Positions 957 through 63,855 of a DNA stretch of 64,000 nucleotides are shown here, piece after piece (positions within the stretch are counted from its first letter, which is position 1; the number at the start of each line of letters is the position of its first letter). Made by a program: the position numbers and the translations under genes. Source of the stretch: Candidatus Saccharimonadota bacterium (lineage in GTDB: Bacteria; Patescibacteriota; Saccharimonadia; Saccharimonadales; SZUA-47); assembly GCA_016700315.1 (NCBI GenBank), contig CP065013.1, positions 917,298 to 981,297 of the forward strand, written 5' to 3'. Below the pieces are notes generated by a model that was given only the letters and a program-made list of their open reading frames with translations, was not told where the DNA came from and searched no databases.

Positions 957-2486
<1,530 letters not shown>

Positions 2487-2612
2487 TTAGGTAAGTTTAG
2501 CACGATAACTAGACCACGCCCTCATGTGCAACTACAAAGAATTTCATTGATTTTACAGAATTGATTATGCTTAACTAGAAGCAAAAGGCAGAGTAGATTG
2601 GGTGAGTTTTAG

Positions 2613-3533
2613 ATGAAACAAATCAAGAGACATAAAAAACAGAAGATGTCGATATTTTTGGTATTTTTAGGCTTTTTAGGGCTAATACTACTGATGGCCT
2701 ACTTCCTGGCTGGTCAAGATGTGGCGCTATTACAGCCTAAAGGTTTTATATCCCACGAACAATTCAAATTGTCGATGACGGTCTTAGCAATTGTTTTAGC
2801 AATTGGGATTCCCTCTGTGGGATTGCTATATTTAATTGTCTGGCGATACCGTGATACCAACACCAAGGCCACTCGCGAAACAGAATCAGAACGCAGTGCG
2901 CTATTCCTGTTTGTGCTTTGGATGATACCAATTAGCGTCGGGGTACTTATTTCACTGATAGTTTGGGAGTCTACCCACCGCCTAGCACCACAAAAACCAA
3001 TTAGTGAGATCGAAAAACCTCTGGTGGTTAAGGTTGTTGCGATGCGTTGGAAATGGTTATTCCTTTACCCAGAGCAGCAAATCGCTTCGCTGAACTACGT
3101 TCAAATTCCCGAAAACACACCCGTTAGGTTTGAGGTAACGGCCGACGATGCGCCTATGACCTCTTTTTGGATACCGCATTTGAGCGGGCAAATATACTCA
3201 ATGACAGGACATGTTAATAGAATCAACGTAATGGGTACCGAAGTAGGTGACTATACTGGTAGCACCCCTGAGATTAATGGTGAAGGATTCGCTGGAATGA
3301 GATTTAAAACCCGTGTTAGCTCGGCGCAAGACTTTGAGGCATGGGTAATTAGTACAAAAGCTAATAACAACACCCTTTCTTTAAGTAAATATGATGAACT
3401 ACTACTGCCAACCGAAAAAACGGACAGTGTTTTTTACGCAAGCTATGATCAAAATCTCTATGATAAAATGCTTATGAAATACATGTCGATGCACGGCGAC
3501 GACAGCGAAACTAATCACGAAGGGCACCATTGA
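2613..3533 (+). CDS. cyoA: cytochrome o (bo3-type) quinol oxidase subunit II
   Basis: Two N-terminal TM helices plus a cupredoxin-fold periplasmic domain (VVAMRWKWLFLYPEQ..., VRFEVTADDAPMTSFWIPHLSGQIY). First gene of a four-gene oxidase operon. Its stop overlaps the next start. Confidence 0.85.
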   Translation: MKQIKRHKKQKMSIFLVFLGFLGLILLMAYFLAGQDVALLQPKGFISHEQFKLSMTVLAIVLAIGIPSVGLLYLIVWRYRDTNTKATRETESERSALFLFVLWMIPISVGVLISLIVWESTHRLAPQKPISEIEKPLVVKVVAMRWKWLFLYPEQQIASLNYVQIPENTPVRFEVTADDAPMTSFWIPHLSGQIYSMTGHVNRINVMGTEVGDYTGSTPEINGEGFAGMRFKTRVSSAQDFEAWVISTKANNNTLSLSKYDELLLPTEKTDSVFYASYDQNLYDKMLMKYMSMHGDDSETNHEGHH

Positions 3534-5617
3534 GAGAATTTTTAATCGGTAAGCTAGACGGCAATTCATTGCCTCACGAGTGGTTCACAATTGGTGGAAC
3601 GGCTGCCTTCGTTTTAATGATGCTATTGATTGCTGGCTATCTCACTTACAAAAAACGCTGGAAATGGCTATGGAAAGAATGGTTAACATCTGTTGATCCC
3701 AAAAAAATTGGCATAATGTATTTCATAGTCGGCGGATTTATGCTTTTGCGCGGAATCCTTGACGCACTAATGATTTGGCTGCAGCAATCTCTAGCAGCTG
3801 GTGCCTCTCATGGCTACCTATCTTCTGAACACTTTCAGGAAATATTTACGGCTCATGGCAATATCATGGTCTTTTTTGTGGCCATGGCTTTTATTTTTGG
3901 GCTGATAAACTACATAGTACCCCTCCAGATTGGCGCGCGAGATCTGGCTTCTCCATTCATGAATACATTAGGCTTTTGGCTGTTTGTCGGCGGCGTGGTG
4001 ATGGTGAATATGTTTTTCCTTTTTGGCGGACAATACGCTGCAACCGGCTGGCTGGCTGTAGCACCACTTTCCGGAAAGGAGTTTAGCCCTGGGGTCGGGG
4101 TCGATTATTGGATATGGAGTTTACAGATTTCAGGTATTGGTACGACTCTCGGCGCGATTAACTTCATAATGACAATATTAAAAATGCGTGTAAAAGGAAT
4201 GACGCTGTGGAAGATGCCGGCTTTCACCTGGGGATCTCTATGCAGCATGTTAATGGCAGCAACTATTTTTCCAATTCTTACCATGACGCTTTTTTTAGTC
4301 TTTTTTGATCGCTACTTAGGCACTCACTTTTTTACGACAACTGCCGGTGGTAACGCCATGCTATATTCAAACCTGATTTGGATGTGGGGACATCCGGAAG
4401 TCTATGTATTAATTTTGCCAGCATATGCTATTTTCTCTGAGATAGTTGCAGTATTTAGTCGCAAACCGGTGGCTAATTATAAATCAAACGTTTTTGGTCT
4501 TATTGGCGTCGCGTCGCTATCACTCGTAGTTTGGTTACATCACTTCTTCACTATGGGTTCGAGTGCCGATGTTAATGCCTTCTTCGGTATAATGACGGTT
4601 TTCGTCGCCATACCAACAACTGTTCTGGTTTTTAACTGGATAGCTACAATGTACAAGGGACGGATTAGGCTAGACACACCCATGCTCTGGTTTCTGGGTT
4701 TTGCCGGCGTCTTTGCTATCGGCGGCATAACTGGAGTCTTATTGGCTGTTCCTTCAATTGATTTCCAGCTACACAATAGCCTATTTTTGGTGGCTCATTT
4801 TCACTCGACGGTTATCGGCGGAGTAGTGTTCGGGGTATTCGCCGGTATATCATATTGGTTCCCAAAATTTACAGGATTCAGACTAAATGAGCGTTTAGGA
4901 AGATATGCCTTTTGGCTATGGATTGTTGGTTACTTTATGTCCTTTGTACCGATGTTTATTTTAGGTCTGATGGGCGCTTCAAGAAGATTAGACCATTATG
5001 ATGCTTCGACCGGCTGGCAACCATTTTTCATTGTTTCGTTGATCGGTGGCATAGTTATCACTGCTGGGGTTACCATGCAAGTAGTGCAAATTATAGCTAG
5101 TTTTATAGAGAAGAAGCGTTTGATGGATACTACAGGAGACCCTTGGGACGCCCGCACGCTAGAGTGGTCAGTAGCATCACCAGCTCCAGCCTACAACTTC
5201 GCCGCGCTTCCTGACGTAAGTGAACGCGACGGTTTCTGGGCAATGAAACAAACTGGGCTACAAAAGCCGACATACGAAGATATTCATATGCCCAAAAATA
5301 CCGCAAGCGGCATATACCTATCTATCTACGCATTCTTAACTGGTTTTGGTTTTGTGTGGGATATTAAGTGGCTGATTATCGTCGGTATTGTTGGAATGAT
5401 ATACACGTTTATCACTCGGACCTTTGATGAAGACTCGGAATACAAGATTGCAGCAAGCGATGTAGAAAAATCGGAGCAAGAACATTTTGTCAAGATGCAA
5501 GAAGTAGAGAAAAGCCGAGATCAGAGCAAGATCGGCCCTGAGTATGATATGGGCTTAAGTGACTTCATTAAGATCGTTTGGAAATGGTTGCTTGGCTTAG
5601 CGAGGCACAAAAAATGA
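3530..5617 (+). CDS. cyoB: cytochrome o quinol oxidase subunit I (heme-copper oxidase)
   Basis: 695 aa. Heme-copper oxidase motifs are present: WMWGHPEVYVLILPAYAIFSE, WLHHFFTMG, VAHFHSTVIGG. TTG start overlaps the cyoA stop. Confidence 0.95.
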   Translation: MREFLIGKLDGNSLPHEWFTIGGTAAFVLMMLLIAGYLTYKKRWKWLWKEWLTSVDPKKIGIMYFIVGGFMLLRGILDALMIWLQQSLAAGASHGYLSSEHFQEIFTAHGNIMVFFVAMAFIFGLINYIVPLQIGARDLASPFMNTLGFWLFVGGVVMVNMFFLFGGQYAATGWLAVAPLSGKEFSPGVGVDYWIWSLQISGIGTTLGAINFIMTILKMRVKGMTLWKMPAFTWGSLCSMLMAATIFPILTMTLFLVFFDRYLGTHFFTTTAGGNAMLYSNLIWMWGHPEVYVLILPAYAIFSEIVAVFSRKPVANYKSNVFGLIGVASLSLVVWLHHFFTMGSSADVNAFFGIMTVFVAIPTTVLVFNWIATMYKGRIRLDTPMLWFLGFAGVFAIGGITGVLLAVPSIDFQLHNSLFLVAHFHSTVIGGVVFGVFAGISYWFPKFTGFRLNERLGRYAFWLWIVGYFMSFVPMFILGLMGASRRLDHYDASTGWQPFFIVSLIGGIVITAGVTMQVVQIIASFIEKKRLMDTTGDPWDARTLEWSVASPAPAYNFAALPDVSERDGFWAMKQTGLQKPTYEDIHMPKNTASGIYLSIYAFLTGFGFVWDIKWLIIVGIVGMIYTFITRTFDEDSEYKIAASDVEKSEQEHFVKMQEVEKSRDQSKIGPEYDMGLSDFIKIVWKWLLGLARHKK

Positions 5618-6201
5618 ATCATGTAGAGTCGCACGAAGAAGCTTCAACCGACCGAGTGATGTTTGGCTTTTGGATCTATCTTATGACCGACCTCCTTATG
5701 TTCGCTGCGCTGTTTGCTGTTTTTGCTGTACTGCGTAACAATACGGCGGGCGAGCCCTCAGGGAAAGATATTTTTAGCCTACCGTTCGTTTTAATTGAGA
5801 CGTTGATACTTCTTACCAGCAGTTTTACCTGTGGCCTTGGCATGATTGCTGCACGAAACAAGGATAAAGCTAAAGTAATGCTTTGGTTCGGTGTAACCAT
5901 GCTACTTGGTTTAATATTCTTAACACTTGAAATTAAAGAATTTAGTACCATTCTTCACGAAGGGCATAGTTGGCGCGACAGTGCCTTTTTGTCTTCATTT
6001 TTTGTGCTTGTTGGCACTCATGGACTGCATATTACATCTGGCATACTGTGGTTGGCAGTTACTTTACGCTACATTGCACGCCAGGGCCTGAATCATCATA
6101 AGATTCGAAAGCTGGCACTCATTAGTTTATTTTGGCACTTTTTGGACATCGTTTGGATTTTTATCTTCACGGTAGTTTATTTAATGTCATTCATAAATTG
6201 A
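5614..6201 (+). CDS. cyoC: cytochrome o quinol oxidase subunit III
   Basis: COX3-like five-TM protein (FFVLVGTHGLHITSGILW, FWHFLDIVWIFIFTVVY). Start chosen at the ATG forming an ATGA overlap with the cyoB stop; the ORF-track start is 5578. Confidence 0.88.
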   Translation: MNHVESHEEASTDRVMFGFWIYLMTDLLMFAALFAVFAVLRNNTAGEPSGKDIFSLPFVLIETLILLTSSFTCGLGMIAARNKDKAKVMLWFGVTMLLGLIFLTLEIKEFSTILHEGHSWRDSAFLSSFFVLVGTHGLHITSGILWLAVTLRYIARQGLNHHKIRKLALISLFWHFLDIVWIFIFTVVYLMSFIN

Positions 6202-6210
6202 GGCTGAGGT

Positions 6211-6885
6211 ATGAGAAGTCACGAACACAAATCTTCGCACGGTAGCATAAAATCATATGTAGTTGGCTATCTTCTTTCGCTAGCATTTACATTGGTTCCT
6301 TACTATATGGTTAGGTCCGGCGGTATGACCGGCCAAAAATTATTGATTACTGTTTTGGCTTTTGCCTTCATACAAATGTTTATCCAGATATTTTTCTTTC
6401 TTCACCTTGGTCGCGGGCCAAAGCCTTTTTATAATGTTATATTTTTCACTGCTACATTCGGTATGATTTTGGTCGTGGTCTTTGGTTCGATATTCATCAT
6501 GGACAATCTTTATCGCAACATGAGTCCTGCTGAGGTGACCACAAAAATTGGCGAAAAAGAAGGTATCGCCGAAATTGCTGGCAAGAAAACAGGTGGATGC
6601 CAAGGTTTAGGCGTTAACCACAAAGCTGTAATAAAAGACGAGCTAGTCACTCCAGATCATATTCATGCGGTTTTATGCGACACGCTGACGATTACCAATC
6701 TTGACAGCATCAACCGCGAAATAACTTTCGGCGAGCACGAAAACCACGAAGCCTATGGTGGTGTATACGAGATATCACTAGCGGCTGGTAGGTCTAAAAC
6801 CATAACCCTCAACACTGCGGGGCAGTATAAGTTTCACGATCACGTAGACCCAACTGTTGGTGCGTTCTTTACTGTAGAGAAGTAA
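6211..6885 (+). CDS. cyoD: cytochrome o quinol oxidase subunit IV fused to a C-terminal soluble cupredoxin-like domain
   Basis: The N-terminal ~110 aa is a three-TM CyoD-like segment (HGSIKSYVVGYLLSLAFTLVPYY). The C-terminal ~105 aa is beta-rich with a cupredoxin-like pattern (LTITNLDSINREITFGEH...GQYKFHDHVDPTVGAFFTV). Confidence 0.75.
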   Translation: MRSHEHKSSHGSIKSYVVGYLLSLAFTLVPYYMVRSGGMTGQKLLITVLAFAFIQMFIQIFFFLHLGRGPKPFYNVIFFTATFGMILVVVFGSIFIMDNLYRNMSPAEVTTKIGEKEGIAEIAGKKTGGCQGLGVNHKAVIKDELVTPDHIHAVLCDTLTITNLDSINREITFGEHENHEAYGGVYEISLAAGRSKTITLNTAGQYKFHDHVDPTVGAFFTVEK

Positions 6886-7701: not shown

Positions 7702-8496
7702 GTGAAAAATGTCTTTAAACTCAGTTTCGCCAGTTTAGCTACGATTCTAATATCAAGTAGTGCTGTTTACGCTTCGGCATATCCGAAATTCGAAAACTAT
7801 ATTAATACGAGGCTGTCTTTTTGGCAAAAAATGTCCGAAATCCCAGAAGGCGACACTGCAAAATTTGATGATTTTTTGGGCAAAGATTACCCAGCTTTTT
7901 CAGGCACTATGGACGCTGCTATAGACGAACTTAGAGCTAGCTCGGTCATTTCAAACAAATTGATTGCTAACGCAATAGAAAAAGTTAAGATCAAGTTTAA
8001 TTCGTTTAAGCTCGCATACGAAACAGGTAATGTCCAGAGTCTTGGGGTGGCCTCAGATGAGCTACAAGCGGCAGTAGAGAATGAAGATAGAATCTTTGAG
8101 CAGGAATACAATAAGGCAAAATCGACTGATAGCAGGCTAATGTACATTTACGGTGGTTTAGCAGGATTTTTCTGTCTGCTTTCGGCTTACCTTTTCGCCT
8201 GGTCACGTAAACCAACACGCACAAGGACAGAAAATCCTATGCACCAAGACGCAGCTAACAAGCTGGCTCAGCAATCAAAAAATGAACTTTTTAAGTCGTC
8301 TCTGATTGCCTCCGGTGCAGCAGTCGTTACTTTAGTGTGGTACTTGAGCGTCAGAAACAATGGCGGTAGCTATATGATTTTCTGGGGACCAATGCTGTTT
8401 GGTGGCTTAGCTTTATTCTCAGGAATAATAAATTACAACAAATCTCGTCGTAATGGTACTTTAGAAAAAGCCGCTAGAAGTTCTATTCAAGGATAA
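7702..8496 (+). CDS. hypothetical secreted/membrane protein
   Basis: GTG start after GAGGGAG. Signal peptide (ATILISSSAVYASA) and three C-terminal TM segments. No family recognised. Confidence 0.55.
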   Translation: MKNVFKLSFASLATILISSSAVYASAYPKFENYINTRLSFWQKMSEIPEGDTAKFDDFLGKDYPAFSGTMDAAIDELRASSVISNKLIANAIEKVKIKFNSFKLAYETGNVQSLGVASDELQAAVENEDRIFEQEYNKAKSTDSRLMYIYGGLAGFFCLLSAYLFAWSRKPTRTRTENPMHQDAANKLAQQSKNELFKSSLIASGAAVVTLVWYLSVRNNGGSYMIFWGPMLFGGLALFSGIINYNKSRRNGTLEKAARSSIQG

Positions 8497-8497
8497 A

Positions 8498-8817
8498 TGG
8501 CAGGGGCAGTAGGAGTCGAACCCGAATAGTGCCAGTGGCACTATGAGTTCACGGGTAGATTGCTTATATGTTTAAAAGTCGTGTTTCGAATTGGTACATA
8601 CTTATCTGATTGTATGGCGCTATGGTTCGACTCTGTGATAAATCGTTCGATTGTTCGTGGCAGGGGCAGTAGGAGTCGAACCCGAATAGTGCCAGTGGCA
8701 CTATGAGTTCACGGGTAGATTGCTTATATGTTTAAAAGTCGTGTTTCGAATTGGTACATACTTATCTGATTGTATGGCGCTATGGTTCGACTCTGTGATA
8801 AATCGTTCGATTGTTCG
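8498..8817. repeat. two identical 160-bp tandem units, each starting (plus strand) with the 25-nt 3' end of tRNA-Trp
   Basis: Units 8498-8657 and 8658-8817 read identically. Each begins TGGCAGGGGCAGTAGGAGTCGAACC, the same 25 nt that begin the complement of the intact tRNA at 8818. Confidence 0.9.
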
Positions 8818-8892
8818 TGGCAGGGGCAGTAGGAGTCGAACCTACCTCTAAGGTTTTGGAGACCTTTATACTAGCCGATGTACTATGCCCCT
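8818..8892 (-). tRNA. trnW: tRNA-Trp (anticodon CCA), CCA-encoded
   Basis: The reverse complement folds as a cloverleaf. Acceptor AGGGGCA/TGCCCCT, D arm GTAC/GTAT, anticodon stem AAGGT/ACCTT with loop CTCCAAA, T arm GTAGG-TTCGACT-CCTAC, discriminator G, then CCA. Confidence 0.9.
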
Positions 8893-10525: not shown

Positions 10526-11632
10526 ATGGCATTCACAACAAACACCGAAGACGCTACGCTAGACCAGCAGCGCCTAAAAAGCCTCGTCAACAGCATGGCA
10601 GATGGCGTTATTGCCACTGATCAAAAAGGCACTATCGTGCTCTATAACGGCGCGGCGATGAACATTCTTGATCGCAACACAGAGATCAAGGGCAGAAAAA
10701 TCGGAAACGTCATCAAAACCATCAACGGCAAACACGAAGAAGTAGATTTCCAAAAAATGGTACTGGGAACAGAAACTCAAACCGCCAGCCGTGACCTCCG
10801 AATTGTTTATGAAGATGAAAGCCAAGTAAACTTATACACCAGCATCGCACCGGTACACTTAGGCTATGGCCAGCAAGGGGATCGAGGTTTTGTAATTCTA
10901 CTCCGTGACATAACTCATGAGAAATCTCTTGAAGAAGAACGTAACGAGTTTATTAGCGTTGTTAGTCACGAGCTACGCACGCCTATCGCCGTAACAGAGG
11001 GTATGATTGGTAACGCCGAATTTTTACTCGATAAATCATCAGATATAAATCAAATTAAGTCGATGCTCAAAAGCGCCCATGAACAAGTTTTATTCTTGGC
11101 TCAGATGATTAATGACCTTTCGACTCTATCTCGCGCCGAACGAGGCAAACTTCAGGCCGATAGGGAAATAATAAACATTACAGATCTGTTAAAAGATCTT
11201 CAGAAAAACTACGAGCAAAGCGCATTTGCCAAGGGGTTAAAACTATTCACAGAAACAGCACCAGATTTAGAAGTTTTATACTCGAGTAAACTATACGTCC
11301 GCGAAGTACTACAAAACTTTATTACAAATGCCATTAAGTACACCGAGACGGGTCACGTCAGTGTTTCTGCCAGACCTTACCAAGACGGTGTAGAGTTCCG
11401 GGTAAGCGATAGTGGCATTGGCATTGGCAAAGCCGACCGCGAAAAAGTTTTTGAAAAGTTTTTTCGAGCCGACAATAGTAAAACCCGCGAACAAAGCGGC
11501 ACTGGGCTGGGACTCTACGTCACTATGAAGTTGGCTAAGATACTAGGAGCAGATATATCTTTGGAGAGCCAGCTAGGCGAGGGGAGTACGTTTACGATAC
11601 ACGTACCGAACTTGCCAGAAAGTGGCGAGTAG
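10526..11632 (+). CDS. cytoplasmic PAS-domain sensor histidine kinase (no adjacent response regulator)
   Basis: PAS-like N-terminus (MADGVIATDQKGTIVLYN), HisKA H-box VSHELRTPI, and HATPase_c N/G boxes (NAIKYT, DSGIGI, GTGLGL). Confidence 0.9.
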   Translation: MAFTTNTEDATLDQQRLKSLVNSMADGVIATDQKGTIVLYNGAAMNILDRNTEIKGRKIGNVIKTINGKHEEVDFQKMVLGTETQTASRDLRIVYEDESQVNLYTSIAPVHLGYGQQGDRGFVILLRDITHEKSLEEERNEFISVVSHELRTPIAVTEGMIGNAEFLLDKSSDINQIKSMLKSAHEQVLFLAQMINDLSTLSRAERGKLQADREIINITDLLKDLQKNYEQSAFAKGLKLFTETAPDLEVLYSSKLYVREVLQNFITNAIKYTETGHVSVSARPYQDGVEFRVSDSGIGIGKADREKVFEKFFRADNSKTREQSGTGLGLYVTMKLAKILGADISLESQLGEGSTFTIHVPNLPESGE

Positions 11633-11903
11633 TTAGTAGTTAGTAGTAAGCGTAAAATTCTAAATTCTAAGCACTAAATTCTAAAATAGACCCTAGACCC
11701 TGGGCCCTGGTCCCTAGTCGGTACGGGGGTAATACTTGCTAACTACTAACTACTAACTACCAGTCCCTAGACCCTGGACCCTGGTCCCTAGTCCCTAGTC
11801 GGTACGGGGTTAATACTTGCTAACTACTACCAACTACCAACTACTAACTACTAGCCCATAGCTCTAATCACTCTAACCTCTAACCTCTAACCTAATCAAA
11901 GCT
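11633..11903. repeat. mosaic heptamer-repeat intergenic element, copy A (forward orientation)
   Basis: Consecutive blocks of 7-bp tandem units (TTAGTAG, ATTCTAA, ACCCTAG, CTAACTA, CTCTAAC). Also the conserved core AAGCGTAAAATTCTAAATTCTAAGCACTAAATTCTAAAATAGACCC. An internal ~68-bp direct duplication is present. Confidence 0.85.
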
Positions 11904-11910
11904 TGCGGCA

Positions 11911-13404
11911 CTACTCAATCTCTGGCAATTTTGGCAGTACATGCATTATTGGCAAGCAAACGTTGCGACCCTTCCATTCGATTTGCCCAAATTCATATCG
12001 CCAGAGTGAAATCAGGCAGGTATATATGTCAACCAAAATTACCAGTGGAAAAATAACCGCCAACAAGGTTGCTACAGTTCGCCCAGTCACAACTGTGAAT
12101 AGTTTGTAAGAAATAATCGACCAGCATAATATAATGGTAATCGATAAAATTGCCCAAGACATAGGGATTGAAGAAATAAGTCCAGAGAGCAGTAGGGTAC
12201 TCGGTAAAAAGAACAGCCAGACCAAACTCATCAGATACAAAGCTACGTTCTCAGGCCTTTTTCGAAGCTGAGGATAGCGAAGACGTATACCCGTCTGATG
12301 TTGCTGCTTAGCAGTTTTATGGCTATGGGCTAGTTTTAGGTTGCGATTTGCCAAAAAATTATAAGAGTTTATAGCCGAGGCTTTACGAGCAAAAAACCGC
12401 TCAGGCATTACGCTATGAGATACGGCCTTAAAACCGCCCGCACCCAAAAAGCTTTTTTTCACCATCCAGCAAGATGAAAGTGCGGGTGGACGTTCTTTGT
12501 CCAAAAAACGGGGTAGCACAATTTCCCAGCCATAGCGAGCTGCCTGGAAGAACAGAGCTTGTTGAATGTGCCTCACTCTTCTTGGTAGCAAGCTGATCAT
12601 ATTTAACTTTTTTGAACACATGTAATTGATAAGGTCGGTTATTCCACCACTGTCAAACCTAATATCAACACCGCAAAAAAGTATATATTCACCCGTAGCT
12701 TCATCACTAAGCCGTTGATAAGCTGAATTTTTTGCCAACCAGCCATTCTCGGGTTCTTCTCCCTGAATAAAACGCACGCCTGCGTGGGCAAACTGCCTGA
12801 TTACTTCTGGGGTTTGATCGTGCGAGCAATCATCAAGCACCAAAACCTCAAGTTTAGGATAGTCGCTTTCCAGAATTGACTGGATACAGGCCGCCATGTC
12901 ATCAGTTTCGTTTCGGGCAGGTATGGCAACTGTCACTACGGGCACATCGTTGCCAGTTATGTCTACGTCTACAATCTTGGTTGGTCTAATATTATTCAAT
13001 AGGCTTTTTAGCATAAGGCATAGGCCTAGTAAACTGCTGCCTAACAGCAGCGGGACAAGAATGGTTGGCTGATTTACTACCAGATAAACAAGTAAAAACG
13101 AGATAATCTGTAGAATCGTTAGGCGCCAGCTGCTTCGACTGACTACTTTCTTTAGGTAGCCTTGGCCCATACGACCGTAACCAAAACGCATGATATTGAG
13201 CGCTCTAAAGAGGCTTACCGCAAATAGGATTGTGGTCGTCCAAGTTATATGATCAAAAAATATCCAAAAAGCACAGAACAATAAACAGAAGAGTAGGATT
13301 GAAGCCGACATTAGACGGTATATGGTTTTTTGATATTCAATTCTAGTCAGAATGAACTCCATTACAGCCTCGACGCCTAACAAAATATATACCGCTGCAA
13401 CCAT
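11911..13404 (-). CDS. polytopic membrane glycosyltransferase, family 2
   Basis: Central GT2 domain (VTVAIPARNETDDMAACIQSILESDYPKLEVLVLDDCSHDQT, ILFCGVD) flanked by multiple TM helices. 497 aa. Confidence 0.8.
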   Translation of the reverse strand: MVAAVYILLGVEAVMEFILTRIEYQKTIYRLMSASILLFCLLFCAFWIFFDHITWTTTILFAVSLFRALNIMRFGYGRMGQGYLKKVVSRSSWRLTILQIISFLLVYLVVNQPTILVPLLLGSSLLGLCLMLKSLLNNIRPTKIVDVDITGNDVPVVTVAIPARNETDDMAACIQSILESDYPKLEVLVLDDCSHDQTPEVIRQFAHAGVRFIQGEEPENGWLAKNSAYQRLSDEATGEYILFCGVDIRFDSGGITDLINYMCSKKLNMISLLPRRVRHIQQALFFQAARYGWEIVLPRFLDKERPPALSSCWMVKKSFLGAGGFKAVSHSVMPERFFARKASAINSYNFLANRNLKLAHSHKTAKQQHQTGIRLRYPQLRKRPENVALYLMSLVWLFFLPSTLLLSGLISSIPMSWAILSITIILCWSIISYKLFTVVTGRTVATLLAVIFPLVILVDIYTCLISLWRYEFGQIEWKGRNVCLPIMHVLPKLPEIE

Positions 13405-17202: not shown

Positions 17203-17597
17203 AAAATACCGAACACTGAATACCGTATACATAGTACCTCGTACTCCGTACTGCGTACTGTTCAAATAGAGCCAAGAGCCATGATTAGGTTAGAGGTTAT
17301 AGGTTAGAGGTTAGAGTGATTAGAGCTATGGGCTAGTAGTAGTTAGTAGGTAGTAGTAGTTAGTAGGTTGTAGCTAGTAGCAAGTAGATATTACCCTACC
17401 GCGTACCCCGTACCGCGTACAGTTCAAGTAGAGCCAAGAACTAGGGTCTAGGGTCTAGGGTCTAGGGTCCAGGGTCTATTTTAGAATTTAGTGCTTAGGA
17501 TTTAGAATTTTACGCTTACTACCAACTACCAACTACTTACTACTACTCAAAGGTTCATACTTTATACATGATACTTAATACTTGATACTATCTAGTG
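17203..17597. repeat. mosaic heptamer-repeat intergenic element, copy B (reverse orientation)
   Basis: Reverse complement of the A/D module order: (AGGTTAG)n, AGTGATTAGAGCTATGGGCTAG, TAGTAGT blocks, GTACCGC blocks, CAAGAGC block, (CTAGGGT)n, then TATTTTAGAATTTAGTGCTTAGGATTTAGAATTTTACGCTT. An extra partial copy sits at the left end. Confidence 0.85.
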
Positions 17598-17600
17598 CTT

Positions 17601-17733
17601 AGACTTCAGGAATCACGCGTTTGCACCTTTTTGGCGAAAATCTCCGTTCCGCGCTCACTGTACGTTAAGTACGGCTCGGCTTTCGGTACTTGATTTTCAT
17701 CCGAAAATGCACTAAACGCGTAATTCCTGGAGT
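17601..17733. other. ~130-bp extended imperfect hairpin (ncRNA, bidirectional terminator or MITE-like element)
   Basis: CTTCAGGAATCACGCGTTTGCA pairs with TGCACTAAACGCGTAATTCCTGGAG, about 21 of 23 positions. Nested inner pairings are GGCGAAAATC/GATTTTCATCC and GTAC-GTTAA-GTAC. Confidence 0.5.
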
Positions 17734-17808
17734 TTAAGGTTTAAACGTTAACTATCTATAGATAATAAACTAACTAACGGTATCTCCTGAAATTAAGCTT
17801 ATTACCTT

Positions 17809-18080
17809 TTATCCGCCGACAATTGCACCCTCAGCAATGGTTAGGCTGGTAAGGTTCGGGTTACCATATATACTCCAAGTTTTTGCACCCTCAGCAATGG
17901 TTAGGTTGGTAAGGTTCGGGTTATCATATATACTCCAAGCTTTTGCACCCTCAGCAATGGTTAGGTTGGTAAGGTTCGGGTTATCATATATACTCCCAGC
18001 TTCTGCACCCTCAGCAATGGTTAGGTTGGTAAGGTTCGGGTTACCATATATACTCCAAGTTTTTGCACCCTCAGCAATGG
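17809..18080 (-). pseudogene. out-of-frame continuation of the LRR-repeat gene (4.5 further intact repeat units ending ...AEGAIVGG-stop)
   Basis: Translating the reverse strand in the shifted frame gives uninterrupted NPNLTNLTIAEGAKTWSIYG-type units down to the TAA at 17809-17811. The span 17809-19883 is 2075 nt, one nt short of a multiple of 3. Confidence 0.65.
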
Positions 18081-18470
18081 TTAGGTTGGTAAGGTTCGGG
18101 TTATCATATATGTCCCAGCTTCTGCACCCGCAGCAATGGTTAGGTTGGTAAGGTTCGGGTTATCATATATGTCCCCAGCTTCTGCACCCTCAGCAATGGT
18201 TAGGTTGGTAAGGTTCGGATTTTCACATATGCCCAGAGTTCTTGCACCCTCAGCAGTGGTTAGGCTGGTAAGGTTCGGGTTACCATATATACTCCAAGTT
18301 TTTGCACCCTCAGCAATGGTTAGGTTGGTAAGGTTCGGGTTATCATATATACTCCCAGCTTCTGCACCCTCAGCAATGGTTAGGCTGGTAAGGTTCGGGT
18401 TACCATATATACTCCAAGTTTTTGCACCCTCAGCAATGGTTAGGCTGGTAAGGTTCGGATATAGAAAAAT
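17815..18470. repeat. about 11 tandem 60-bp repeats encoding 20-aa LRR-like units
   Basis: The unit GCACCCTCAGCAATGGTTAGG(C/T)TGGTAAGGTTCGGGTTA(C/T)CATATATACTCC(A/C)AG(T/C)TT(T/C)T recurs with exact 60-nt phase, except for one 59-nt unit near 18112. Confidence 0.95.
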
Positions 18471-19883
18471 ATCATTTACCTCTGCTGCCGCTTCAACTGC
18501 TAGTTCTAGGTTTACGACAAAGCCTTTATCGTTATAGGTATAGTGGTAAGTATGGGTTGGACTACCTTTATCACCGTAAAGCACTAGCTCATGTCGGCCA
18601 TCAGCAAGGACTTTAATATTAGATCTGGTATCGTGATCAATCCCTGCTAGTTTACCCTGACCGTCTTTACTGACGTAGAGTGTTGGCGAGAGCATGTCGT
18701 AGTGACCTTTGTCTATTTTTGTTACTAGGCCGTTTTTGATGTGCTCATAATGACCTAGGTATACGTTGTCCTGTTCGTAGTAGTAATAGTGGATACCGCC
18801 GTCATTGTCTAATGTATAGTTGTCACCCAGTTTCGTATTTCCAAGCTTCATCAAATCATCACGCCCAACATGATGATAAAGTGCATGTCTTAGTCCGTGA
18901 GCAACAGCGTCAAGATCGTTGCTGTAAGTATTATCTGGGTTAGTGACTGTATGATTGTAGCGGTTTTTAATAGATACATGGTTGCCACTGCGGCTGATCT
19001 GTACCGACATACTGGATACTCCGTATGGGTCTTCACGGGTTGGTGCAAGCCTGATTAGATCATACCTATCAGTTTCAGGGTCGTACCTGTTTATGATACG
19101 AAGGTACTGCTTCCAGGCCTCGCTTAAGTTATCGGCAGTCAGCTCATTAGCCGGCAGAGTATCATCGGCATCGTTGTGACGCAGCCACATAATATGGTAC
19201 TGCTTTAGTCTCTCTGGTATTTCTTTAAAGGTGCAAAGCCTCTCGCCGCCTCTGTAATCACGCTCAAAGGCCGCTACTTCATCTACCAAGTTAAGCGGAC
19301 CATGAAGTTTGTAGCCTACCGACGCGGCTAGCTCGTATGGGTTCTTAGGCTCCGTCAGCCGAATCTCTCCCTGCTCATAGTAGTGTCTCTCTAAAATTGC
19401 GGCTATATAACTGTGGTTAGCTCGCAGTGTCTGTAGGGCCTGGTGGGGGTTGGGTATAATCTTCTTCAGCTGAAAAGCAAAGTCCAATTGTTCCATGTAG
19501 GGAGCTAATAACTCACGGGCACCGTTACCGGCATAGCTTCCGTCGCTATTAAGCTCGCCTTTAATAAACGAGTCGCCATACCAGTTATTTAGCCGGTTAG
19601 TGTTAGACCTTAATATCTTTTTTCTGGCTGCCTCTTCGGTGTCTAAAGTGACTGGTGTTTCTGTGTCTGATTGATGGCTTTCTGATCTGTCGGTTAGAGC
19701 AGTAGCGCCAAGCTCTCTAGAACTTAAGCACGGCGTACTCTCAGCTGTGCTTTCAAGATAAAACTGCGTACGTTTATCGCCAGCTGTACCTGGAACCATA
19801 ACGCCACTAATATCTCCAACACCTAACTCGGTTGTCGATAAGAACCCATAAATAGGTTGTTTAGTAAGTAAATCTCCGTGCAT
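18081..19883 (-). CDS. large cytoplasmic-type protein: unknown ~460-aa N-terminal domain plus C-terminal LRR-like 20-aa repeats (NPNLT(S/N)LTIAEGA...); frame ends prematurely inside the repeats
   Basis: 600-aa ORF. The repeats resemble BspA-type leucine-rich repeats. No signal peptide seen. The stop at 18081 follows a 1-nt deletion relative to neighbouring units. Confidence 0.75.
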   Translation of the reverse strand: MHGDLLTKQPIYGFLSTTELGVGDISGVMVPGTAGDKRTQFYLESTAESTPCLSSRELGATALTDRSESHQSDTETPVTLDTEEAARKKILRSNTNRLNNWYGDSFIKGELNSDGSYAGNGARELLAPYMEQLDFAFQLKKIIPNPHQALQTLRANHSYIAAILERHYYEQGEIRLTEPKNPYELAASVGYKLHGPLNLVDEVAAFERDYRGGERLCTFKEIPERLKQYHIMWLRHNDADDTLPANELTADNLSEAWKQYLRIINRYDPETDRYDLIRLAPTREDPYGVSSMSVQISRSGNHVSIKNRYNHTVTNPDNTYSNDLDAVAHGLRHALYHHVGRDDLMKLGNTKLGDNYTLDNDGGIHYYYYEQDNVYLGHYEHIKNGLVTKIDKGHYDMLSPTLYVSKDGQGKLAGIDHDTRSNIKVLADGRHELVLYGDKGSPTHTYHYTYNDKGFVVNLELAVEAAAEVNDIFLYPNLTSLTIAEGAKTWSIYGNPNLTSLTIAEGAEAGSIYDNPNLTNLTIAEGAKTWSIYGNPNLTSLTTAEGARTLGICENPNLTNLTIAEGAEAGDIYDNPNLTNLTIAAGAEAGTYMITRTLPT

Positions 19884-33888: not shown

Positions 33889-34345
33889 GGTTAGGGCGAG
33901 TTGATAGTTTATGGTTGATGGTTTATAGAAGAGCCAGGGTTAGGTTAGAGGTTAGAGTGATTAGGGCTACGGACTAGTAGCAAGTAGCTAGCAGTTAGTA
34001 GTTAGTAAAAATTACTCCGTACCGCGTACCGTTCAAGTAGAGTCAAGAGTCAAGAGTCATGAGCCAAGAACTAGGGACTAGGGACTGGTAGTTAGTAGTT
34101 AGTAGTTAGTAGTTAGTAGTTAGTAGTTAGTAAAAATTACTCCGTACCGCGTACCACAGGGGGGCGGGGGGGGGGGAGACTGTACTGCGTACCTGTCGTC
34201 CAAATAGAGCCAAGAGTCAATAGTCACGAGCCAAGAACTAGGGTCTAGGGTCCAGGGTCTATTTTAGAATTTAGGGCTTTAGAATTTAGAATTTTACGCT
34301 TGCTACTTACTACTAACTACTAGCTACTTGCTACTAGCCCCTCAA
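33889..34345. repeat. mosaic heptamer-repeat intergenic element, copy C (reverse orientation, internally duplicated, contains a G6CG11 tract)
   Basis: Same module set as copy B. The block GTTAGTAGTTAGTAAAAATTACTCCGTACCGCGTACC occurs twice. G6-C-G11 lies at 34159-34176. It ends with the conserved TATTTTAGAATTTAG...GAATTTTACGCTTGC core. Confidence 0.85.
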
Positions 34346-34403
34346 CGCTACAAGCTAATCGCTAGCCCACCTCGCTGCTCATTCGTCATTCTGACGAATT
34401 GGG

Positions 34404-55005: not shown

Positions 55006-55310
55006 GAGATAGGGGAATAGTAGTAAGTAGTTGGTAGTTGGTAGTAAGCGTAAAATTCTAAATCCTAAGCACTAAATTCTAAATAGACCCTGGACCCAGG
55101 ACCCTAGACCCTAGACCCTAGACCCTAGCTCTTGGCTCATGACTCTTGACTCTTGGCTCTATTTGAACAGTACGCAGTACAGGGTACGCGGTACGGAGTA
55201 ATATCTACTAGCTACCAACTACTAACTACCAACAACTAGTCCGTAGTCCTAATCACTCTAACCTCTAACCTCTAACCTCTAACCTCTAACCTCTAACCTC
55301 TAACCTAATT
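55006..55310. repeat. mosaic heptamer-repeat intergenic element, copy D (forward orientation)
   Basis: Module order: TAGTAAG/TGGTAGT block, AAGCGTAAAATTCTAAATCCTAAGCACTAAATTCTAAATAG, (ACCCTAG)n, CTCTTGG/CTCTTGA block, GTACGCA/GTACGCG block, CTAACTA block, TAATCACT, then (CTCTAAC)x7. Confidence 0.9.
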
Positions 55311-63804: not shown

Positions 63805-63820
63805 AATGAACTCCGTTCAT

Positions 63821-63850
63821 AGTAGTAAGTAGTAAGTAGTAAGTAGTAAG
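63821..63850. repeat. period-7 array (GTAGTAA x4) immediately upstream of atpG
   Basis: AGTAGTAAGTAGTAAGTAGTAAGTAGTAAG, read directly. Confidence 0.9.
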
Positions 63851-63855
63851 CATTT

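Follow-up and report, generated by a model that had tools for sequence, protein, structure and literature searches.

In a Candidatus Saccharibacteria genome, the tRNA-Trp gene is followed by two identical 160-nt units, and each unit is, with a probability of about 0.65, a gene-less relic bounded by attachment-site repeats at a tRNA-Trp integration hotspot. The feature is of a known kind, a textbook-type integration scar, and here it is unusually well documented. The window, that is, the whole 64-kb stretch of DNA that was analysed, contains the array and its flanking genes, and related strains show the same site in other states. This natural variation shows directly the gain and loss of elements, the expansion and contraction of repeats and the recombination with foreign DNA. 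The array can thus be used as a marker of a tRNA-Trp hotspot in Saccharibacteria, which are candidate-phyla-radiation bacteria with few described mobile elements.

Structure of the tRNA-Trp repeat array

On the minus strand, the tRNA-Trp gene (8892-8818) is followed by a 135-nt spacer and a 25-nt fragment (GGTTCGACTCCTACTGCCCCTGCCA), and both are then repeated in the same order (Table 1). Tandem Repeats Finder reported a period of 160 nt at 8498-8842, with 2.2 copies, 100% matches and a score of 690. The repeat search gave 160-nt copies at 8498-8657 and 8658-8817 that were 100% identical, and exact copies of the 25-mer (n = 3) starting at 8498, 8658 and 8818, with the plus-strand sequence TGGCAGGGGCAGTAGGAGTCGAACC. 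A perfect tandem repeat of 345 nt is well above chance expectation.

In the tRNA, the 25-mer begins with the final two T-stem bases on the 5′ side and continues through the T-loop and the remainder of the gene to CCA. The repeat therefore starts 2 nt before the T-loop, a canonical sublocation of crossover (as are the anticodon loop and the 3′ acceptor end), and ends at CCA. In addition, the repeats lie downstream of the intact tRNA-Trp and in the same orientation as the gene, as in an attachment-site (att) scar. Furthermore, F1 and the spacer at 8523-8657 together are an exact duplicate of the attB region described below, from -25 to +135.

A preliminary description of this DNA had reported two perfect 160-bp units with the 25-nt tRNA-Trp 3′ end, a last fragment lying 1 nt away from the stop of the convergent gene at 7702-8496, and a hairpin and a TTCGA-containing piece within the spacer. 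All of these were recovered, and the TTCGA-containing piece proved to be an exact 10-nt inverted copy of the T-loop region. Its statement that integrase and cargo are absent also holds: there is no ORF in the 135-nt spacer, no integrase or cargo lies between the repeats, and the 64-kb window contains none of the genes of the 8.2-kb element that sister strains carry, integrase included.

Table 1. Features of the tRNA-Trp locus (positions within the window)
Feature	Position	Strand	Basis or remark
Hypothetical protein, 264 aa, convergent, QQS64864.1 (IPO96_04870)	7702-8496	+	distal flank of array
F2, distal 25-nt copy of tRNA 3′ end, 1 nt from stop codon of ORF 7702-8496	8498-8522	-	
135-nt spacer, distal copy, unit 1	8523-8657	-	repeat search
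Perfect 7-bp hairpin TAGTGCC-AGT-GGCACTA	8527-8543; second copy 8687-8703	.	
Exact 10-nt inverted T-loop copy GGTTCGACTC	8624-8633; second copy 8784-8793	+	fold, local alignment
F1, 25-nt copy of tRNA-Trp 3′ end, T-loop to CCA	8658-8682	-	repeat search
135-nt spacer, tRNA-proximal copy, unit 2	8683-8817	-	100% identical to 8523-8657
CTGCCA (plus strand TGGCAG), 6-nt core, attB crossover region of LSR element	8818-8823	-	L001, L042 versus empty L005, L045
F0, repeat copy formed by final 25 nt of tRNA-Trp	8818-8842	-	sequence reading
Intact tRNA-Trp, anticodon CCA, CCA end encoded	8818-8892	-	ARAGORN; Rfam tRNA model, 59.9 bits
P-loop kinase, 217 aa, AAA_33/KTI12-like, QQS64865.1	8967-9620	+	5′ side of tRNA

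Both flanking proteins are named 'Candidatus Saccharibacteria bacterium' in their records, and the relatives of the kinase in a species-representative genome collection (53-69% identity) were all from Candidatus Saccharibacteria MAGs. The source contig has 988,272 nt, which suggests a closed, long-read genome. Metagenomes in which the species is present include sets from activated sludge and wastewater.

Copy number and age of the array in related strains

The 217-aa kinase was the anchor for fetching related loci (L-numbers). In contigs encoding exactly the same kinase or the same 264-aa protein, the site was found in three states. Two units were present in L002/L041 (with an N-gap in the second unit), L004 and L009, and one unit in L005, L007, L008 and L045. 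In the third state the site carried an 8.2-kb element, with both ends visible in L001 and L042 and the tRNA-side end in L003, L006 and L010. The preliminary description had considered that related strains might carry zero, one or more units or a full element at this tRNA. The full element exists, as a serine-integrase element between identical flanks, and one and two units were seen; a zero-unit allele, with the tRNA directly on the flank of the 264-aa gene (tRNA 3′ end + TTTATCCTTGAATAG), was never seen among these loci.

The 1.6-kb flanks on either side were 100% identical to the window in L001, L002 and L005, as were the left flanks of L042 and L043 and all of the sequence present in L045. 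Flank identity was 96-98% in L004, L007, L008 and L009. Near-identical flanks thus go together with differing occupancy and copy number, which means that both evolve faster than point mutations.

When all units were aligned, the variants were alpha (the window type), beta (two substitutions), gamma (in L009), delta (in L063) and 'GA' (in L067). The arrangements, distal + proximal, were alpha + alpha in the window, alpha + beta in L004, alpha + gamma in L009 and delta + beta in L063, and the two units of an array differed at 2, 5 and 6 positions in L004, L009 and L063, respectively. The single units were alpha in L005, L045, L001 and L042 and beta in L007, L008 and L066. Related unit variants therefore occupy different array positions in different lineages. 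In addition, L063 carries at its tRNA a variant of the serine-recombinase (LSR) element with methyltransferase/helicase cargo, and its distal flank is wholly different.

These data bear on whether the second unit is an artefact of assembly or polishing and the true genome has only one. The units of the window are 100% identical, an identity that may partly reflect polishing; short-read contigs of the same lineage have one unit (L005, L045), and the second unit of L002 contains the N-gap. However, a loop-walking assembler cannot create the unit-specific substitutions of L004, L009 and L063, and thus the two-unit array is real and older than the lineage split. Logan contigs are assembled with k = 31. 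In some of them (L044, L047-L049, L068 and L069) the sequence stops exactly 31 nt inside the first unit, and others start at 'GTTCG' + fragment + 'T' (L055-L058 and L062). Such breaks imply two or more units, because the branch point needs a spacer end before both the tRNA and another spacer, and this signature occurred in about 11 independent samples. Furthermore, the single 988-kb contig implies long reads spanning 320 nt, so a miscount of the 320-nt repeat is unlikely. An artefact is thus very improbable as an explanation of the second unit.

The assembly collapse or expansion that the preliminary description had allowed for is therefore excluded for the array by the unit-specific substitutions and the contig breaks. 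Its proposal of a very recent tandem duplication applies at most to the identical pair of this genome; the array itself is old and is present in three other lineages. The identical pair is best explained by recent homogenisation or re-duplication and not by the first duplication; gene conversion might have been the route, for example, or the array might have shrunk to a single alpha unit that was then duplicated anew. Meanwhile, where contigs of the window's lineage have a single unit, short-read assembly could have collapsed two identical units into one. The single beta unit of lineage B is harder to read in this way, because the distal unit of its two-unit relative is alpha.

The serine-recombinase element at the tRNA

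Compared with L005 and L045, L001 and L042 have an insertion of 8,199 nt that lies precisely at the boundary between CCA and the spacer, and the duplication at its ends is limited to TGGCAG. The L001 element encodes a 501-aa LSR with Resolvase, Recombinase and Zn_ribbon_recom domains (Pfam; PHROG 'integrase', E = 2e-53), a Phage_CRI-type rolling-circle Rep, and cargo (NUDIX, YCII, RidA-like, His_Phos and DUF4238). It also encodes a 62-aa HTH_17 protein, which matches excisionase families and could be a directionality factor. In tRNA sense, the tRNA-side junction reads '...CTACTGCCC CTGCCA / tatagaac...' and the far-end junction '...cctttagggg CTGCCA / cgaacaatcg...'.

A metagenome scan with the recombinase found relatives that were 75-97% identical. 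In eight loci these adjoin tRNA-Trp, with eight different tRNA sequences and unrelated downstream flanks, always at ...CCCCTGCCA. Since the integrases sit at eight different tRNA-Trp sequences, a broad target range of the element family is suggested. The family measures 5-9 kb, its core of identity is 6-9 nt, and the crossover falls within CTGCCA. As the element is small, self-replicating and site-specific, it is a possible starting point for genetic tools in these hard-to-manipulate bacteria.

In L031 we found a perfect head-to-tail repeat of the element with a period of 5,208 nt (100% identical over 7,920 nt), which gives attP, and L033 has the same head-to-tail attP junction. According to both junctions, the conserved motif AAGGACGCAWTRTGTAACCC is the true far end of the LSR element. 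This motif directly adjoins the spacer in L001, L042 and L063 and an ordinary terminator in other species; thus, the spacer is chromosomal and lies outside the LSR element. From the anatomy of the junctions, the attB of the LSR element consists of the tRNA end and the start of the spacer. Judged from these sequences, the element is a precise attP x attB integrator with a short crossover core.

Because the element duplicates only 6 nt (TGGCAG) and abuts the spacer, neither the 25-nt repeats nor the spacer stem from it. The place of the unit directly beside this sister-strain element in L001, L042 and L063 could suggest that the unit is one end of the element or was derived from it by deletion. 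This idea is refuted by the attP junctions of L031 and L033, which join the integrase 3′ end straight to the far-end motif with no spacer, and we give it practically no weight. Furthermore, the attP arm encodes a conserved tail of the integrase, which limits any likeness to the tRNA to 9 nt; integrated copies in other species abut ordinary terminators; and the spacer and the element have no sequence similarity.

The 135-nt spacer

No Rfam family matched the spacer; the tRNA alone was matched in the region, and the remaining matches had E > 1. When both units were compared with phage and plasmid collections by BLASTN, only the 25-nt tRNA part matched, to other tRNA genes. Exact-pattern scans of IMG/VR with two spacer segments, the attP junction and the high-GC junction described below gave zero matches. 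In addition, sensitive blastn and nhmmer searches of the spacer against 70 fetched loci found the same locus only, within one species. Relatives of the 135 bp elsewhere, which the preliminary description had envisaged, were thus found neither in the phage, plasmid and viral (IMG/VR) collections nor in related loci, and the same searches found no cognate element for the 25-nt repeats.

Local alignment detected a 19-nt stretch of the spacer that is 79% identical to the tRNA 3′ end (p ~0.09) and overlaps the hairpin on the tRNA strand; against shuffles, the 10-nt inverted T-loop copy had p ~0.12. Both are suggestive of older, decayed att pieces, but neither is significant alone. Two other origins were rejected. 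As a decayed 5′ half of tRNA-Trp (a degenerate tandem tRNA), the spacer aligned no better than shuffles (p = 0.87 and 0.45), and a coding-region remnant is ruled out by the lack of any open frame. A piece of the LSR element is likewise ruled out by the attP junctions.

The spacer and fragment might instead have been kept because they are useful, either as a structured 3′ trailer or a terminator of the tRNA-Trp transcript or as a selected landing pad or decoy with several attB sites for incoming elements. On the tRNA strand the unit folds with -33.1 kcal/mol (z = -2.55 versus shuffles), and the excess comes mainly from the 7-bp hairpin and from the pairing of GAGTCGAACC with the T-loop part of the neighbouring fragment; the inverted 10-nt copy is able to pair with either adjacent 25-nt fragment. 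The window tRNA also has no intrinsic terminator of the kind that follows tRNA-Trp in other species, and the internal junction duplicates attB exactly. However, the spacer has no Rfam match, and a scan found no promoter-like or terminator-like site in it. The hairpin and the inverted T-loop copy are unchanged in all unit variants, but only ~10 variable sites exist, so the invariance of such short motifs is uninformative. The spacer is 96-98.5% identical between lineages and the flanking genes are 96-98% identical; because the two divergences are alike, there is no sign of special constraint on the spacer. Furthermore, the LSR-element insertions with a visible tRNA-side junction are all at the true tRNA (L001, L003, L006, L010 and the L063 variant) and none is at the internal copy. 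A useful spacer is therefore unlikely.

Equally doubtful is an active, non-autonomous miniature integrative element made up of an attP-like core and the 135 nt, whose excised minicircle would be re-integrated in trans by an integrase encoded elsewhere, so that tandem copies would arise through re-integration and not through unequal crossing-over. Perfect direct repeats do bound each unit, the copy number varies, and the inverted 10-nt T-loop copy could be a recombinase-binding site. A parallel comes from other Saccharibacteria: L014 and L020, which are two other species with differing flanks, have in common a spacer of ~150 nt that is unlike that of the window and ends in a tRNA-Trp fragment. 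In the window's case, by contrast, the spacer is confined to one locus in one species among the fetched loci, its variants follow lineages as for vertical inheritance, and no cognate integrase lies within the window. In addition, a 160-bp circle is sterically unfavourable.

L014, L020 and L013 carry non-homologous short scars after tRNA-Trp, with fragments of 16, 18 and ~10 nt, respectively. These are analogous to the array; short tRNA-Trp scars are thus recurrent in the phylum. In the nearest sister, L051 (85% kinase identity), the T-arm of tRNA-Trp is of the common type, CGTGG/CCACG, and the DNA beyond CCA, of which just 11 nt are available, differs from that of the window. The window tRNA differs from that of L051 at 8 of 32 positions in the 3′ part and at 2 of 43 in the 5′ part.

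The distal fragment and high-GC DNA

The distal fragment F2 is polymorphic in other strains: it can be a hybrid, foreign-type fragment (F*), it can have CCA changed to CTA, or it can be joined to high-GC DNA. In L066 and L067, the fragment beside the 264-aa gene reads GGTTCGACTCCGGCCACCCCTGCCA. This sequence comes from a foreign tRNA-Trp-type core, because its acceptor strand CACCCCT cannot pair with the resident AGGGGCA. L065, from sample 3300045332, has the same flank and the same 17 nt, followed by DNA of 58-70% GC. This DNA matches, at 82-84% identity and with conserved synteny, the central part of a 44-kb, 64% GC, mobile-element-like contig with genes for ERF, DUF932, SNF2 and a giant methyltransferase-helicase. 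The shared 17 nt are too short to have led an assembler to a chimeric join. Furthermore, two Logan contigs break directly after TGGCAGGGG, where both alleles diverge.

Thus, the distal fragment is a recombination site too, and it has recombined with at least one other, unrelated element. The L065 join may be a regular integration or an aberrant event; there is no integrase nearby, and the high-GC element is interrupted within the 5′ end of one of its small ORFs. Pfam gave only HTH_8 for the high-GC element, and an attempted taxonomic placement gave no nucleotide matches. Phages and plasmids of actinobacteria as well as of proteobacteria contain DUF932 relatives (25-32% identity), which are therefore not decisive for the placement.

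One may speculate further that the array is maintained as a landing pad with several sites, by which unrelated mobile elements gain access to the chromosome of this ultra-small, epibiotic bacterium, with F* and the L065 junction as footprints of cross-phylum integration. The elements would then be small serine-integrase/rolling-circle replicons and a 64% GC element, probably from a high-GC organism and possibly from the host bacterium. We consider this broad proposal improbable.

Origin of the array and comparison with known systems

We prefer the reading of each unit as a relic bounded by attachment-site repeats. First, a site-specific integrative element, since lost or deleted, would have recombined with the tRNA gene through an attP core equal to the last 25 nt of tRNA-Trp, in the classical tRNA-restoring geometry that displaces a copy of the 3′ end. 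Second, the 135-nt non-coding remnant, with its further pieces resembling the tRNA 3′ end, would be all that is left of this element. It is the geometry that points to this descent, as no full-length progenitor and no other copy of the spacer were found. Third, unequal recombination or replication slippage, at the 25-nt direct repeats and later at the 160-nt units, would account for the variation between one and two units that we see among strains, and for the shuffling and homogenisation of units. Finally, the DNA that we take to be the relic today supplies the attB for the 5-9-kb LSR/HTH/rolling-circle-Rep elements. Against the relic model stands the observation that just one element was seen to enter and leave the tRNA-proximal site, and that it makes a duplication of 6-9 nt and not of 25. 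The attL/attR-type scar of the preliminary description thus stands in so far as the repeats behave as attachment-site relics at a hotspot, and fails if the resident LSR element is taken as their source.

The closest parallel for the repeat is the geometry of integrases whose crossover in the T-loop restores the tRNA gene, such as that of mycobacteriophage Ms6, which uses a 26-nt T-loop core in tRNA-Ala (PMC1762012). As in Ms6, the repeat is the exact tRNA 3′ end from the T-loop to the gene end (25 versus 26 nt), and because of this extent the tRNA remains intact. However, unlike attL and attR of the Ms6 type, the repeats here enclose 135 non-coding nt without integrase or cargo, and the unit occurs twice in tandem.

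Tandem arrays of att-bounded DNA have also been described. In Dehalococcoides, ssrA islands with a serine recombinase have made tandem 20-bp repeats of the ssrA 3′ end, and gene-poor ssrA units have been discussed as possible cis-mobilizable elements (PMC3146451). In streptococci, ICE/CIME arrays grow by tandem accretion at one att site (reviewed in PMC5704250 and PMC6323972). The present locus resembles both in that gene-poor, att-bounded DNA lies beside a small-RNA gene in tandem with a complete recombinase-bearing element and in that occupancy varies by strain; as in Dehalococcoides, the recombinase belongs to the large serine family. Like a CIME, the units are flanked by att-type repeats and have no recombination or transfer genes. 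As in tandem duplication, they lie head to tail with a short direct repeat able to seed the event, and their copy number varies in close relatives, although the lineage-A single-unit contigs may be assembly collapses. Unlike the CIME and ssrA arrays, the relic has 135 nt and zero genes, and its parent element was not found; no derivation of the spacer from a known ICE or IME was found either. Furthermore, CIMEs share att sites with their partners, whereas the LSR junctions share only CTGCCA with the array, and the attR of the LSR element is its own far end. Since the LSR element uses an identity of 6-9 nt and does not share the 25-nt repeat, co-excision of the units with it (cis-mobilisation) is not expected. 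Thus, because the LSR element ignores the 25-nt repeats and a parent element is lacking, we class the units as an att-bounded relic and do not regard them as a proven CIME.

The neighbouring recombinase itself resembles the large serine integrases (phiC31, A118, SPbeta SprA and CcrB/DsiB) in its Resolvase, Recombinase and zinc-ribbon domains, and its element shares with theirs a short crossover core and a small HTH protein. Unlike in these integrases, attP lies inside the 3′ end of the integrase ORF, a difference that concerns the context and not the repeats. The far end of the element encodes the conserved C-terminal tail of the integrase, and the integrated copy therefore loses this tail of ~32 aa, so that the integrase has a 533-aa and a 501-aa form. 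In our literature search, we found no description of an attP inside the 3′ end of an integrase ORF. This ORF spanning attP and the high-GC junction are more unusual than the repeats themselves.

Integrase Reading Frame and attP

When the head-to-tail and integrated forms of the large-serine-recombinase (LSR) element at tRNA-Trp were compared, we found that the attP crossover falls within the serine-integrase ORF, at its 3′ end. The ORF encodes 533 aa in the head-to-tail form (circular or tandem), and the product has the conserved tail WQ[GP]LKDA[IL]CNPELPFE.... In integrated copies, the ORF enters the tRNA and stops after 3-33 tRNA-derived codons, and the tail-coding piece stays behind at the element's far end. 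For instance, the integrase of the integrated copy in the sister strain (L001) ends WQGQ*. Substitutions in the tail favoured third codon positions (17 vs 9 and 7). In addition, the full-length integrases in the protein database (533-535 aa) are found on contigs of 4-6.5 kb, whereas the truncated ones (500-525 aa) are found on contigs of up to 245 kb. On this evidence, integration may switch or disable the integrase. We found no description of such an arrangement.

Coordinates of the features described in this section
Feature	Position
Serine-integrase ORF, head-to-tail forms	L031:1629-3230; L033:1944-3545
Serine-integrase ORF, integrated forms	L001:8361-9866; also L029, L030, L035
Hybrid distal tRNA fragment	L066:1620-1645; L067:2698-2723
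High-GC junction region	L065:3796-6795; related region L070:9500-12000
tRNA-Trp compared in the T-arm	window 8818-8892; L051:10-84
Scars after tRNA-Trp, with 3′-end copies of 16, 18 and ~10 nt	L014:1033-1200; L020:1289-1460; L013:~900-1200
Heptamer repeat clusters	window 11617-11913, 17234-17548, 33940-34365, 55015-55310, 63819-63851
60-nt tandem repeat	window 17704-18578
ORFs overlapped by the 60-nt repeat	window 17837-18151 (+), 18081-19883 (minus)
Haem-copper oxidase operon and UbiA-family gene	window 1620-6885

Probable Spread and Cargo of the Element

Integrases 93-97 % identical occupy six tRNA-Trp genes that differ in sequence and have unrelated DNA downstream (L001, L028, L029, L035, L038, and L039). 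This implies that the LSR element spread recently between Saccharibacteria species, and that its target is set mostly by ...CCCCTGCCA. The cargo varies among the copies: metabolic genes in the sister strain, a methyltransferase and a ResIII/SNF2 helicase in the lineage with a variant element (L063), and a minimal form of 5.2 kb in L031.

Possible Foreign Sequence at tRNA-Trp

In some strains, the distal tRNA fragment is hybrid, and its 3′ end is of a foreign tRNA-Trp type (TGGCAGGGGTGGCCGGAGTCGAACC). One contig (L065) has the same 17 nt as the link between the Saccharibacteria flank and DNA of 58-70 % GC. That DNA is related to a mobile-element-like contig of 44 kb and 64 % GC carrying ERF, DUF932, SNF2, and a giant methyltransferase-helicase. 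The join may be aberrant, or an element from a high-GC organism may have integrated into the epibiont genome, which has 43 % GC; a second junction of the high-GC DNA was not found.

Furthermore, the T-arm of the tRNA-Trp in the window is GTAGG TTCGACT CCTAC, and that of the nearest sister species (L051) and many other Saccharibacteria is CGTGG TTCGATT CCACG. The two genes differ at 8 positions in the 3′ 32 nt and at 2 in the 5′ 43 nt. These differences could stem from compensatory evolution, or foreign DNA could have replaced the 3′ part of the tRNA.

Short, non-homologous scars were also seen 3′ of tRNA-Trp in other Saccharibacteria. The spacers of two of them (L014 and L020) are homologous to each other and contain a long hairpin, and their flanks differ.

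Other Repeats and Genes in the Window

Several intergenic regions contain clusters of 7-nt tandem repeats (TTAGTAG, CTAACCT, GACCCTA/GGGTCTA, and relatives), which pair between loci as long imperfect inverted repeats that are 79-99 % complementary and reach 112 nt. The clusters are reminiscent of the short tandemly repeated heptamers found in filamentous cyanobacteria, and their presence in Saccharibacteria is unexpected. In addition, a 60-nt unit occurs in about 14 tandem copies (66-94 % identity among the reported 276-nt register windows). It overlaps ORFs of both strands, and the region probably encodes a repeat-containing protein.

Finally, this genome, which is only about 1 Mb in size, has a haem-copper oxidase operon (COX2, COX1, COX3, and COX4_pro, Pfam labels taken from syntenic loci) with a UbiA-family gene beside the hotspot.
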